This document shows positions 46,871 to 56,849 of a stretch of DNA of 64,000 nt, piece after piece (positions within the stretch are counted from its first letter, which is position 1; each line of letters opens with the position of its first letter). The notes beneath the pieces were generated by a model. That model was not told the origin of the DNA. It saw nothing but the letters and a program-made list of their open reading frames with translations, and made no database searches. The DNA comes from Alphaproteobacteria bacterium (GTDB lineage Bacteria > Pseudomonadota > Alphaproteobacteria > UBA828), in NCBI GenBank assembly GCA_965214705.1, contig CBDCCI010000002.1, forward strand, positions 2,016,001-2,080,000, read 5' to 3'. The position numbers and the translations under genes are program-made.

Positions 46871-47366
46871 TCTGTTTCACGCAGCGTAGTTAGCCTCGAA
46901 TGCTAATTGATGCTCGGGCCTGTCTCTAGCCCGCATTTCTCACCACGGTCATGGTCTGCGCGGCGCTGTCCGGCCGACAGGGTAGGAACGGCGCGCAGCT
47001 CGATGCGGGGACATCGGGCAAGGGCCGTGACGCACCCTGTCGGCCGGACGGCGCCGCCCTTCGGGTCGTGCCCGGGCGCCCGCCCGCGTCGTCGCGGGCC
47101 TCAACCGTATTCCCTGATACGCTTTTCGGTCCGCTCCTGGCGGATCGAACGCCTGGGCGCGACGCAGGCCGTGACCCTGATGAGAAACAACAGTCAATCG
47201 TGTTCCACCCTATTCCCATGAGATTTCTGGAGTTCCTCGATTCTGTCTAATACAATGACATGGAGGAGATTTTAGCACTCCGTGGACCTGGTGAGCACTC
47301 CTGGAATACACTTCGCGTGTTGTGGAAGGTGTTGATTTTGAGGACAAGCCATGTCATCATGCCTCC

Positions 47367-48668: not shown

Positions 48669-48820
48669 TCGCCGAGACCGATATTTTCGGCGAGGGGTGT
48701 GTCGGTTTCGTTATCCCTGCCGGTCCCCGCCGTCCACCGGATGATTGTACCCAGTTCGCCATGAAGCGTCGTGTTCAGCCGGCCCCATAACAGGCCAGGA
48801 GTGAGCACGATTCGCTCGAC
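48631..48820 (-). pseudogene. C-terminal relic of a tRNA-targeting serine recombinase
   Basis: VERIVLTPG...TLHGELGTII.W...DTP then, frameshifted, SVSAISGSGLEPTTFR* reading into the tRNA relic. Confidence 0.5.
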
Positions 48821-49035
48821 TGGTTCCTCCTGTCGCCGGCATCCGTAGCGACCTAGGCATGGAACCACTTCGTGATCGCGCTTTCTGGTTGCAGATTCAG
48901 CCAGCGCCAAGCCATCTGGGTCATGTGCTTCATAAAGCGCAAGAGGCCGCAGGCCGGCCTTGCTGATGGCGAGATCGTGATCGATATCTCCGCTCGCCCA
49001 AGGTACCGACGTCAACCCGGCCCAGCTGTATAACG

Positions 49036-49085
49036 CGTAGCGCGTCGATCTGGATGAGAGCCCGCATCCAGATCGACGCGCTACG
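49036..49085 (-). terminator. Perfect 21-bp hairpin abutting the terminal CRISPR repeat
   Basis: CGTAGCGCGTCGATCTGGATG-agagcccg-CATCCAGATCGACGCGCTACG; function inferred. Confidence 0.5.
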
Positions 49086-50128
49086 GGCTATCCCCGCGCG
49101 AGCGGGGGAACCTGACCGGCCTGATAGTCGCCCCGGTCAAACTGGGGGCTATCCCCGCGCGGGCGGGGGAACTACGGAGGGTTGGTGATGCAACAGTGCA
49201 CGCTGTTGTCCGGCAGCGTCCGCAACTGCTCGCGAGCATCGCCGACGAGGATTTTGGCAGCCACCAGCGCGTCATCCGCTCGATGCAGAGGGCGAGCATC
49301 TGGTCGTAGATGTGCTGGCGCACGCCGACGGCCACGTCGGGAATGATCGCCTCCACGCCGCCGCCGATGCCGACATCACGCTGGGCGATAAAGCCCTCAA
49401 CCAACTCGTGCACCGGGTCGATATCGTCCCTAAGCGCACTATGAAGGAAGACGAGTTGCGTCTCCTGATGCTCAAGCTCGTCAATCCACAGCGGCTTGTC
49501 GGCCGCGATCAGGCAGGGATTGATGACCTCGGCGTCGATCTCGGCCTCGTGCGGCCCGGCAAGGGCGAGACGCACGCTCGCCATCCCCAGCAACAGGATC
49601 AGCAGCGCGACGACGCACGCCTGCGCCCAGCCAGCCGGCCTGGTCAGTCCTGCGATCATGTCGCCTCCTATTTCGGCACGACCAGCGTACACCCTCCGCC
49701 GGCGTCGCGCTTGGTTGCGTGCGTGATCAGGTAGGGGCTATCCCCGCGCGGGCGGGGGAGCCACCCGCCGGTCTCGGCCCCGGAGCCCGTGCCAGGGGCT
49801 ATCCCCGCGCGGGCGGGGGAGCCGAATCCGAGCAGGTAGGTGAGAGACACCCAGCGGGGCTATCCCCGCGCGGGCGGGGGAGCCCCGGCGGAGAGTACCG
49901 TGCAGCCGGTTATCGGGGGGCTATCCCCGCGCGGGCGGGGGAGCCGTCGTTGCGTTCCATGTCTGAGTCCCTTCATTGGGGCTATCCCCGCGCGGGCGGG
50001 GGAGCCGAGCGGCGCCGGCCTTGCCCGTTCGATGGCCCGGGGCTATCCCCGCGCGGGCGGGGGAGCCTTGAGCCGTACCTCACCCGTCCAGACCGGCCCG
50101 GGGCTATCCCCGCGCGGGCGGGGGAGCC
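49084..50128 (-). CRISPR. Orphan type I-E-like CRISPR array: 9 repeats of 29 bp, seven 32-bp spacers and one 560-bp inter-repeat insert
   Basis: Repeat GGGGCTATCCCCGCGCGGGCGGGGGAGCC at 49734, 49795, 49856, 49917, 49978, 50039, 50100 (61-bp period); variant repeats at 49084 and 49145; reverse complement resembles the I-E repeat ending GGGGATAnnCC. Confidence 0.95.
49174..49659 (-). CDS. Hypothetical exported protein inside the 560-bp inter-repeat insert, running into repeat 2
   Basis: RBS AGGAGG then ATG (MIAGLTRPAGW...), signal-peptide-like VVALLILLLG...ALA; preceded by the tail of another ORF. Confidence 0.5.
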
Positions 50129-50420
50129 CAAGCCGGCCAAGGCATCACCTCGAACGTCCAGTTCGTGCCGACCTCGCAGCTCGCGGTCTACCGGCCGGAG
50201 CACCGGCTGGAGGACACGATCCTGGGCGAATACACCCAGGCGGGCGGCTTCGACGCCGCCGTCGGATAGGGCAGTAGCCCATGGGAACTCTGCGGGACCT
50301 CGCCGACGCGGCGATGGTCGTCGAAAATGCGGTGGAGGGAGTGGGCGATATCTCCCTCCGCTTCCCCACCTCCGTTCAGCGCCGCGATCTGCTGGCCCGC
50401 CTGAAGCGGGTCAAGCTCAA

Positions 50421-51572
50421 CCCAAGTTGGCAGTGCGCCGTGGAAAGGCGCTCTCTTTCAGCGGGTGCGAATCCCGCCCAACAACTGTCGCTCCGGTTGG
50501 TAGCAGCCAGGGCGGTTCATGGAGGTGACGACATGGGCTGAAGCACCTTGGTGGAAAAGGGCCACCGTTGGGTGGCTCAGCGACCGTGCGGGCCGGAACG
50601 TGAGTGAACGCTGAGCAGGCCTCGAAACGGGTAATGCGAGTGTCGACCCTCCTGCCAAAAGGGGAAGACCGTCGCCGATCGGGAAGAGAGCGACATGCGC
50701 ACCGATCGCGGCTCGCCGGGGTAGTGGCGCCGGCACGCACGGAAGAGGAAGAGAGCAGCAACACGGGAAGCCCTGACGGTGGTGCGCGCACATCAACCGG
50801 AAGCCCGCGAGGGACAGGCCGGGCCGTCAGGGTGGCGGAGAGGCCCGTAAGACTGAGGACGCCGGGTAATGCCGGCCGAGGAAAGGGGCCTCAGGTGTGG
50901 AGGGGTGCCTTGAAGGGAGAAGGGCCAGGGAGTGGCTAAGCCTGTAACCCCGAGAATGGCCGGAGATCCCGGCGGCATCACATGCAAATGGAAGCGAAGG
51001 GGCCGCCCGGAGCAAATCTGCGCGGTACCGCCGGGGCATCGACAGGCCCGGCGGTCAAGGCGGACGACGAATGGACCGCGATGGTTGAGGGGATGCGCAC
51101 CCTTGCGACCGGATCGGAGGTTCCGATCACGTGCGCCATCGTCGCGAGCTTTGCCTGTGTGCGAGATGCATGATCCCACTGGAGAGCTCGGTGCTCGAAA
51201 TGGGCACGCCGGGTTCGGAGAGCGGGGACCGGAAACGCGGCCAAGGGAGCCGGATTGAGGCCCGCAGCGAAAGCGGCGGAATTGCCACCGGACCCTACAG
51301 CAGGCGCGCCAGTCCTCGACTCTACCTTTTTCCGACCGGCCGAGCCTGATCGAGCCGGTTTTGCGGCGCTGAATCACTAGATGTTGGGGTTGGAAGACCC
51401 CTGACCCCCACATTTGCGATCTGTGGTCCTGGAGGTCGATTGTGGGGCCAGGACTTTGGGGTTGAGTCGATATCCCTCTTGCCAGACGCCGCGCCCGCCG
51501 TGTATGCGAAACAGGCATCGCAGAAACGGCGCCGCCATGTACATCAAGGCAACCAGGACGCACACCGACAAG
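50421..51572 (+). mobile_element. Truncated left end of an IS1634 (same type as 61489-63648), split by an intron
   Basis: CCCAAGTTGGCA (50421-50432) plus CTTTTTCCGACC...MYIKATRTHTDK (51326-51572) match the reverse complement of the left end at 63648. Confidence 0.88.
50433..51325 (+). mobile_element. ORF-less group II intron (893 nt)
   Basis: Starts GTGCG and ends GACTCTAC; domain V GAGCTCGGTGCTCGAAATGGGCACGCCGGGTTC near 51184; long domain VI; EBS1 TGCCAA (50653-50658) pairs with exon TTGGCA; no RT ORF. Confidence 0.88.
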
Positions 51573-56033: not shown

Positions 56034-56500
56034 TGCTGTCCTCCTGCATCGCAGGTTCGGCCGCTTGTGTCAGAAGAGTGGCCAACCGTTCCGTCACGAT
56101 CATGCGTTCGGCCAGGCTCAGCCCCTGAAGCTCGGTCGATTCGAACGCCAGTGCGATCTGGCGCGGGGATGGTGGAAGAACTTTCAAGGCGGACGTCATC
56201 GGTCTCCCCTCGGGAAAGATTCGTAGCTTCCCGAGAGTCCTGCCTGACGCCGGTGTCGATCAACAGACTGTGGAGTTCTGCCAATGCAGAAAGAGAGATC
56301 TCCGGTTCGCCCAACTCCATTCCCGCGCAGGCCGCTGCATCGAGCATCCAGCTCGGGATCAGGGTCAACTCGCCGGAGGGGGCCTCGACCCGAACCGCAG
56401 GATCGGAAGCGCGCTGCTCACGCTGGACTACGCGAACCGAAAGCCCGTGAAAGCGGTGCCAAGGATAATGGACCTCCGCAATCTGCCCGATATGGGCAGA
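56030..56500 (-). CDS. Small accessory protein upstream of the recombinase (Y4bD/DUF5372-like); start uncertain
   Basis: VHYPWH.FHG...IPSWMLD...LSALAEL..LL; stop overlaps the recombinase ATG. Confidence 0.55.
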   Translation of the reverse strand, partial: SAHIGQIAEVHYPWHRFHGLSVRVVQREQRASDPAVRVEAPSGELTLIPSWMLDAAACAGMELGEPEISLSALAELHSLLIDTGVRQDSREATNLSRGETDDVRLESSSTIPAPDRTGVRIDRASGAEPGRTHDRDGTVGHSSDTSGRTCDAGGQQ

Positions 56501-56849
56501 AAGGCTTATCCCCTTACATCCGGCTTCTCCATATGTGGGGTGCCGGATCGCTGGGCACTTTACGGGCAACCCATTGAGACACGGAAGGAACTGCGACCGT
56601 GTCGGATACCGCCGCCGAGGTGGCCGGTACAACATGTTGGGGAACCGGAGCCAGAGGGATAAGCCTTTGGGCAGAATGTAAGGAAGACGGTCGTCTCCCG
56701 GCTGCTTGGCCACTCCAATTCGCGCATGACGCTCCGCTATGTTCATGTCGGCGACCGCGAGATCGAGGCGGCGGCAGAACGCATCGGTGTAGCCATCAGG
56801 GCGGCATTGGACGCTGGTACCACAAACTCGGGCGACTAACCTAGTGTTG

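Follow-up and report, generated by a model that had tools for sequence, protein, structure and literature searches.

The subject of this analysis is a 64,000-nt stretch of the genome of an alphaproteobacterium of the lineage UBA828 (assembly GCA_965214705.1, contig CBDCCI010000002.1, positions 2,016,001 to 2,080,000), referred to here as the window. The window carries a CRISPR array in which the place of one spacer is taken by a 560-bp insert of gene-like DNA. An original prediction, made from the sequence alone, had described this insert as a gene-sized spacer and a contiguous slice of a foreign operon, and had named oversize acquisition, spacer-protospacer recombination and capture of a gene cassette as its possible origins.

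Structure of the array

The repeat search located nine repeats of 29 nt (R1 to R9; unit on the minus strand, GGCTCCCCCGCCCGCGCGGGGATAGCCCC) at window positions 49084-50128. Measured between starts, the first two repeats lie 61 nt apart, the next two 589 nt, and the six remaining distances are all 61 nt. Seven of the eight intervals are 32-nt spacers and the eighth, between R2 and R3, measures 560 nt (49174-49733), in agreement with the original prediction. The array reads from right to left, with R9 (50100-50128) on the leader side and R1 on the trailer side; this orientation was assigned because the same repeat lies on the plus strand downstream of cas1e-cas2e at the main CRISPR locus of the genome. 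The partly palindromic 29-nt repeats and the 32-nt spacers are features of type I-E arrays.

The repeats are not uniform. R3 to R9 are identical and start with GGCT, while T replaces C at repeat position 3 in both trailer-side repeats. R2 starts with AGTT, its first base being A for G, and R1 has two further changes beyond the T variant. The GGTT form of the repeat, to which R1 and R2 belong, is the common form in distant phyla. The two repeats that flank the insert are therefore not identical duplicates, R3 being a C variant and R2 a T variant; later mutation is possible.

The sequence on the R9 side does not resemble the leader of either main array, and this flank is GC-rich and coding-like. 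The main-array leaders and that of the relative G037 are richer in AT, and the leader of main array 1 is conserved in G037. No sigma-70-like promoter was predicted in 48800-50700. The window array is a type I-E array, but an orphan and leaderless relic.

Reality and rarity of the insert

The insert matched itself alone in the 7.9-Mb, three-contig genome. The original prediction had found no insertion sequence (IS) ends and no target-site duplication, and we likewise detected neither terminal inverted repeats nor a target-site duplication, the CRISPR repeats being the only repeats at the edges. Pfam gave no family for the ORFs of the insert, transposases included. Thus, the insert shows none of the four features of an IS or transposon (transposase, terminal inverted repeats, target-site duplication and several copies), and a multicopy mobile element, which the prediction had listed among the findings that would overturn it, was ruled out by the single copy and by the lack of inverted repeats and duplication. 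A row of degenerate repeat-spacer units was also ruled out, since a length of 560 nt does not fit the series 32 + 61k and the region has the structure of genes.

The prediction had called for a check of reads for misassembly. A Logan contig of 906 nt from run X1, which is possibly the genome's own sample, spans 48950-49761 and so contains R1, R2, the full insert and R3. Contigs from two runs independent of X1 span the insert/R3 junction (run X5, second study; 120 nt, 49642-49761) and the R2/insert junction (run X7, third study; 151 nt, 49154-49304). All three contigs matched the window with 0 differences, and a misassembly was thereby ruled out. Further contigs of run X5 contained all six downstream spacers and the right flank. 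The parts of the insert left uncovered in X5 and X7 carry no weight either way. In run X7, very short contigs with a depth of 60-130 matched the R2 region (49142-49171) with one difference, and these point to another organism of the sample in which arrays with a similar repeat are abundant.

In a survey of arrays with this repeat core, also proposed in the prediction, 291 of 327 intervals were 59-62 nt from start to start; the remaining intervals were multiples of 61 or lay within two irregular actinomycete records. Apart from these two records, no repeat-bounded, gene-sized insert was found in the surveyed regular arrays. At the level of titles and abstracts, the literature search found no report of a gene-sized, repeat-bounded insert other than an IS, which is no claim of absence from print. 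The insert is a real and rare structure.

Gene content of the insert

Three-frame translation of the minus strand revealed the 3' end of a gene (geneX'), then an ORF (ORF2) preceded by AGGAGG, and then the start of a DNA methyltransferase gene. The first two had been recognized in the original prediction, as had the running of the ORF2 frame into the next repeat; the methyltransferase start, which lies in a separate frame, adds to that description, as do the T-variant repeats and the absence of a leader. In the geneX' tail, the GC content at third codon positions was 0.83 (first 70 nt). ORF2 runs in the direction of the array, and its AGGAGG lies 5 nt before the ATG.

The translated methyltransferase fragment, VAAKILVGDAREQLRTLPDNSVHCCITNPP, matched PHROG 67 (E = 8.6e-7) and PHROG 6025 (E = 6e-5), both annotated as DNA methyltransferases; Pfam gave no match for this short piece. 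Relatives of the fragment were confirmed by tblastn in 89 of 176 candidate stretches of viral contigs. The ORF started no more than 11 codons from the residue aligned to I22 in 62 of the 80 viral loci that were kept. The commonest viral start is 3-5 codons ahead of ILVGD, and the GTG of the insert is 3 codons upstream of this motif. The residues that follow PP were YG in 66 and Y plus any residue in 78 of the 80 loci. In the insert, the frame ends after two bases of the Tyr codon of NPPY, where R2 begins, so that methyltransferase coding bases reach within 1 nt of the R2 edge. The N-terminal region leading to (D/N/S)PPY is present, and a complete catalytic or S-adenosylmethionine-binding domain is not, the fragment having 30 codons only. 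Judged from these comparisons, positions 49175-49264 are the true first 30 codons of a predicted phage-type N4/N6 DNA methyltransferase.

ORF2 was aligned with two paralogues of its own genome and one protein of the relative G037; V-I-x-P-C, Y and C-I (VIxPC...Y...CI) were invariant in the alignment. A profile of these four proteins found 177 cluster representatives at E <= 1e-3, most of them of about 105 residues. The family, which includes proteins P0002-P0150, consists of uncharacterized signal-peptide proteins of about 105 amino acids with two conserved cysteines, and the signal-peptide-like character that the original prediction had read from ORF2 agrees with membership in this secreted-protein family. 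Pfam gave no family for ORF2, for nine representatives of the family or for the genes at the trailer end of the main arrays.

Among the 112 family representatives with the motif, the tail past the last conserved cysteine has a median length of 8 residues and is shorter than 15 residues in 96. ORF2 lacks the stop codon expected there and has 37 extra codons to the end of the insert, beyond which the frame continues through the repeats. Position 49264, G on the coding strand, serves in two frames: it closes an ORF2 TGG codon and opens the GTG of the methyltransferase. With A at this position there would be an overlapping stop and start of the common kind, TGATG, so that ORF2 would end with ...CIERMTR and the methyltransferase would start with ATG. 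We infer that the insert, as predicted, is probably a contiguous piece of an operon, since then hit by at least one point mutation.

Junctions and the putative protospacer-adjacent motif

Gene-like DNA outside the CRISPR units meets the edge of a repeat three times in the array: at R9 (5' edge, 50128/50129), R3 (3' edge, 49733/49734) and R2 (5' edge, 49173/49174). R3 is a perfect 29-nt repeat that the insert follows directly. If target DNA had entered by recombination at a spacer, a repeat should be preceded at its 5' edge by a 32-nt spacer, then by the protospacer-adjacent motif (PAM) of the target and then by more target DNA. At R2, DNA of the putative target is continuous with the spacer-length segment that abuts the repeat, methyltransferase coding sequence running through the last 32 nt to R2.

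The R2 junction reads ...GGAC-AAC-AGCGTG...CCTCCGT(A)-(G)TTCCCCC, with AAC exactly 32 nt ahead of the edge when the A of the Tyr codon is counted. The R9 junction was examined after R2, as a test, and there ...GGCACG-AAC was followed by exactly 32 nt and then by GGCTCCCCC. The genome-wide frequency of AAC is 0.0085, which is the probability of the R9 register alone. The joint chance of AAC at R9 and R2, with three registers allowed at R2, is about 2e-4; the chance of any common trinucleotide, with three registers and no prior motif, is about 0.07.

The PAM of the Escherichia coli type I-E system is AAG, and its G becomes the last base of the repeat; positions -3 and -2 of type I-E PAMs are AA. 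A repeat-core scan of public genomes gave 28 loci, and 12 regular arrays (257 repeats) were used to examine the 29th repeat base. This base was C in 168, G in 56, T in 26 and A in 7 repeats, and in the relative G033 (L055) it was C in 21, G in 16 and T in 5. Variation at this base was seen in the public metagenome-assembled genome (MAG) arrays L080, L081, L085, L087, L091, L093, L096, L102 and L103. In the own genome, the 29th base was C in all listed repeats except R1, which has G. The variability indicates that the base arrives with the spacer, with C preferred; the 29th repeat base is PAM-derived, and this backs the last base of AAC. We infer that AAC may be the PAM of this system.

The main type I-E locus and other CRISPR systems

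Thirty further copies of the window repeat are located at C3:1412815-1416584, 650 kb from the window array on the same contig (C3), with a cas operon upstream. The operon encodes Cas3, Cas7, Cas5, Cas6e, Cas2e and Cas1e (280.8 bits, cut-off 215.6). Cse1 scored below its cut-off (50.8 versus 70), and Cse2 gave no match in the one ORF tested. As predicted from its genes, the type I-E operon of the genome is complete.

Main array 2 ends in a perfect repeat, and 230 bp past it lies the closest ORF2 paralogue of the genome (32% identity across 107 residues). This paralogue is followed, on the minus strand, by the first 64 codons of another ORF, which has its own ribosome binding site and is cut at the edge of the last repeat (C3:1416590-1417300). 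The genome thus has two instances of an ORF2-family gene followed by the 5' part of the next gene, cut by a repeat, and the two differ in their orientation relative to the array. Since the 7.9-Mb genome has only two paralogues, the chance of such proximity between an ORF2 paralogue and an array is roughly estimated at about 1e-3. Elements with ORF2-family genes may be habitual targets that recombined with the arrays. The possibility that the R9 junction shares a spacer with the end of main array 2 was ruled out, as the 32-nt segments differ.

The two main arrays, of 21 and 9 repeats, are 2 kb apart (C3:1414061-1416069). A 285-aa ORF, labeled transposase-like by eye only, lies between them, and the second array has an AT-richer upstream stretch of its own. 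Three spacers, at window positions 49946-49977 (minus strand) and in main array 1 at C3:1412841-1412872 and C3:1413512-1413543 (both plus strand), are variants of one sequence with a common start; two of them are identical at 24 of 32 positions, and the motif resembles a ribosome binding site plus ATG. These spacers look like the outcome of repeated acquisition at one site in related targets. Four further Cas1 genes were located (C3:1659136, C1:1944956, C3:494463 and C1:406199). The first is a Cas4g/Cas1g fusion (764.8 bits) beside a type I-G Cas3-extension protein, and that at C1:406199 is Cas1c-like, below the cut-off. By these gene assignments, the genome is predicted to hold several CRISPR systems besides type I-E.

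Search for the source element

The original prediction had proposed a search of phage, plasmid and metagenome data for the source of the insert, and no source element was found. The 44 genomes of the family gave short, weak matches in 5 relatives only (E >= 7e-6), and the plasmids and phages gave none. ORF2 had 2 weak matches besides its own genome in 49 genomes of the order, and it matched itself only in an index of 5.8 billion proteins. In viral and metagenome contigs, 0 of 5 ORF2 candidates and 0 of 271 pattern matches were confirmed. The back-translated methyltransferase motif was found 0 times in viral contigs, and the ORF2 profile had no match in the 80 viral methyltransferase loci. Because no relative has the array, comparison did not show R1-R2 and R3-R9 to be independent arrays, which the prediction had regarded as grounds for rejecting it; the switch from T to C variant exactly at the insert keeps this a possibility.

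Origin of the insert

The reading that we favor, and to which we give about an even chance, is that the insert is DNA of a targeted mobile element fixed by homologous recombination between spacers and protospacers, and not a spacer acquired by Cas1-Cas2. The array would first have held two ordinary spacers against one element: S_a, corresponding to the first 32 nt of the insert, and S_b, corresponding to its last 32 nt at the methyltransferase start. Both would be on the same strand and 528 nt apart, as is typical of primed type I-E adaptation. A double crossover or gene conversion through both 32-nt homologies, possibly promoted by a phage recombinase or by cleavage of the element through Cascade-Cas3, would then have exchanged S_a-repeat-S_b for the continuous target DNA that spans both protospacers, with a product bounded exactly by repeats. 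In a variant of this scheme, the target would have bridged two arrays, one with T-variant (R2-R1) and one with C-variant (R9-R3) repeats. A similar, one-sided event may have brought target DNA up against R9 on its leader side and removed the leader. Later decay would have included loss of the ORF2 stop and the change of the methyltransferase start to GTG, leaving an orphan relic enclosed between a group II intron and an IS fragment.

Recombination is favored because of the exact borders, the contiguity of the slice, its co-orientation, the AAC register and the one-sided R9 junction, where the leader is missing. The complete type I-E operon means that the genome has the means to acquire such spacers and to cut their targets. 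The ORF2 paralogue and cut gene beside main array 2 fit this reading as well. Of the three mechanisms in the original prediction, this one gained ground from the two occurrences of AAC and from the 29th base, oversize acquisition was neither supported nor excluded, and the expressed cassette was not supported.

Several observations count against recombination. The switch between T and C variants at the insert is unexplained within a single array, although the two-array variant covers it, and the 1-nt anomaly at R2 is also left unexplained; the AAC register there requires either a 28-nt R2 or a 31-nt S_b together with a G-to-A substitution in R2. For recombination of the RecA type, 32 bp is a short homology arm. 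The AA part of AAC comes from general knowledge of type I-E PAMs. No protospacers of 35 ordinary spacers were found in the own genome, phages, plasmids and the 44 family genomes, the same was true of 105 spacers from three relatives, and the phage collection contained no match to the arrays of two MAGs. The sole partial protospacer-like match (L070, 27 of 32 by hand count) has ATG upstream, not AAC, and may be due to chance. No source element was recovered that would show the slice to be contiguous or to have a PAM at its S_a end. The ancestral S_a-repeat-S_b array was found in no relative, and only 2 of the 44 family genomes carry the repeat at all.

Four other schemes were tried and rejected. 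A single crossover at one spacer followed by internal deletion was ruled out since the insert does not begin and end with the same 32 nt. A hidden leader for R2-R1 was ruled out by the lack of similarity to the main-array leaders, and a CreTA-like mini-array by the spacer between R2 and R1, whose best match elsewhere in the window is 20 of 32. The insert is also not contiguous with the right flank, as would hold for an array piece lying inside one gene region, since the plausible genes of the flank are on the opposite strand.

It is possible, though we consider it unlikely, that two array remnants, an old T-variant one (R2-R1) and a leaderless C-variant one (R9-R3), were joined with a scrap of a mobile element, either illegitimately or through an IS, intron or integrase, within a much rearranged island; the repeat-exact edges would then be partly a matter of definition and partly chance. 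The repeat variant changes exactly at the insert, which this history would explain, and the array is leaderless, unlike the main arrays and that of G037. The setting also suits it: a unique island (49029-50419) lies between the IS fragment and the group II intron, close to a serine recombinase and three tyrosine integrases, in a genome saturated with multicopy elements whose main arrays too are split by 2 kb containing the transposase-like ORF (a label by eye). However, methyltransferase coding sequence extends to within 1 nt of R2, for which a random breakpoint would have an estimated chance of about 3 in 61, and R3 and R9 are intact through their last base. The AAC in spacer register at two junctions is not explained by chance, and no IS end, inverted repeat or duplication was present at the junctions.

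Oversize acquisition is improbable. In this scheme, Cas1-Cas2 would have linked a 560-bp fragment by both its 3' ends to the two borders of the repeat that then lay nearest the leader, and so have duplicated that repeat. Junctions at both borders of a repeat are the natural outcome of integrase chemistry, the flanking repeats are complete but for 1 nt, the 29th base at R3 is C, as with normal spacers, and intact Cas1e and Cas2e are encoded in the genome. The insert of 560 nt nevertheless stands against a type I-E ruler of 32-33 nt (prespacers of about 33 bp, according to PMC9699676), and the regularity of the surveyed arrays, which lack a gene-sized insert, argues in the same direction. Duplication predicts identical repeats, yet R3 is a C variant and R2 a T variant with an altered first base. 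Neither the AAC 32 nt before the R2 edge nor the R9 junction is explained by acquisition. An extended form, in which full-site integration of 560 bp, about 17 times the ruler, was accompanied at R9 by half-site integration of a longer fragment that displaced the leader, is equally doubtful.

The least probable explanation, to which we give very little credence, is a functional repeat-bounded cassette in which the array transcript carries ORF2, which is expressed or freed by Cas6e cleavage at the flanking repeats. The orientation and AGGAGG of ORF2, its membership in a real family (the 177 representatives mentioned above) and the Cas6e gene of the genome are in keeping with such a role, but there is neither a leader nor a promoter-like site, both neighboring genes are fragments and the genome has a single such insert. 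Loss of the ORF2 stop, against the short tails of 96 of the 112 representatives, together with the point mutation, argues against selection for an expressed cassette. The claim that the ORF could be expressed was thus not sustained.

Features of the array and its neighborhood

The coordinates of the array, the insert and the adjoining features are listed in Table 1. Homologues of the right flank were sought in 300 genomes of the class, its own genome excluded; weak short matches were found in 17, none of which was confirmed at the protein level. The 5' part of the group II intron beyond this flank is 99-100% identical to C3:1417931-1418841, C3:383376-382840 (537 nt) and C1:1331321-1330405. The copy at C3:1417931 lies 1.3 kb past main array 2, and the upstream flanks differ among the copies. 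Two group II intron copies are within 1.4 kb of CRISPR array ends. The three tyrosine integrases and the serine recombinase are all within 6 kb of the array. Multicopy elements are extremely abundant in the genome, where several segments of 170-260 bp occur in dozens of near-identical copies, and pairs of tyrosine integrases are abundant as well; multicopy segments in the window are located at 46918-47187, 48812-49028, 51326-51572 and 56499-56667.

Table 1. Window coordinates of the repeats, the insert, the proposed former spacers and the flanking features
Feature	Position	Strand	Remarks
Truncated multicopy-element (IS) fragment	48812-49028		About 85% identity; at least 23 matches in the genome
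Hairpin, 20-bp stem	~49040-49087		Adjoins R1
R1, trailer-most repeat	49084-49112	-	Degenerate T variant, GGTTCCCCCGCTCGCGCGGGGATAGCCCG
Ordinary 32-nt spacer, R2/R1	49113-49144	-	From repeat parse
R2, T-variant repeat	49145-49173	-	First base A, not G; or a 28-nt repeat with the A as part of the insert
S_b, proposed former spacer	49173-49204	-	32 nt including A at 49173; AAC before it is GTT on the plus strand at 49205-49207
Insert, 560 bp	49174-49733	-	One copy, without IS features; probable contiguous operon slice
Putative methyltransferase start, 30 codons, GTG	49175-49264	-	VAAKILVGDAREQLRTLPDNSVHCCITNPP; PHROG matches; separate frame, last 90 nt of the insert
ORF2	49267-49659	-	AGGAGG at 49664-49669, ATG at 49659; hydrophobic, signal-peptide-like N terminus
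geneX' tail, last 21 codons + TAG	49668-49733	-	Frame opens at repeat edge; YLITHATKRDAGGGCTLVVPK; with 21 residues too short to be assigned to a gene
S_a, proposed former spacer	49702-49733	-	First 32 nt of the insert
R3-R9, identical C-variant repeats, with six 32-nt spacers	49734-50128	-	From repeat parse
S_0 (proposed spacer 50129-50160) and AAC	50129-50163	-	Abuts leader-side edge of R9; GTT on the plus strand at 50161-50163
Unique right flank	50129-50419	+	Gene 3' end (stop 50267-50269) and next gene start (ATG 50281); cut at 50420
Group II intron 5' part, 911 bp	50420-51330	+	Rfam RF02003 at 50459-50603, 80.2 bits

Comparison with known systems

The structure is most likely a fossil of recombination rather than a giant acquisition. 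If so, it would be a natural fossil of spacers that served as homology arms, drawing DNA of the targeted element into the array and stripping it of its leader. It would then bear on the decay and orphaning of arrays, on the entry of mobile genes via immunity loci and on the reading of "aberrant spacers" in array-detection pipelines. If the integrase had done it, the insert would be a striking exception to the accepted length ruler of Cas1-Cas2.

Canonical type I-E acquisition by Cas1-Cas2 shares with the insert the bounding repeats of the type I-E family and the usual C at R3. It differs in that the insert is 560 nt and not 32-33 nt long, has a gene structure and lies between non-identical repeats in an array without a leader. 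An IS or transposon in a CRISPR array would likewise give a long gap between repeats of the same orientation, but the insert has no transposase, terminal inverted repeats or target duplication, is present in a single copy and has its borders at the repeat edges.

Mini-arrays and solitary repeat units of viruses and other mobile elements have been proposed, according to PMC8616872, to recombine with host arrays. Like those mini-arrays as outlined there, R2-spacer-R1 is a one-spacer unit with a variant repeat beside mobile-element genes, and recombination between repeats could import an element. Unlike them, the adjoining methyltransferase gene is truncated at the repeat, and no element with such a unit was found.

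The closest parallel is the recombination between spacer and target in staphylococcal phages (Varble et al. 2019 and Watson et al. 2018, as cited in PMC8616872). As summarized in that source, spacer and target provide the homology there too, and the target is joined to the array exactly at the spacer. In the staphylococcal case, the outcome described is that CRISPR-cas is carried over by phage particles that escape or transduce. The window insert would be a chromosomal fossil in an orphan type I-E array, with a short piece of the target placed between two repeats by two crossovers and with an additional one-sided junction.

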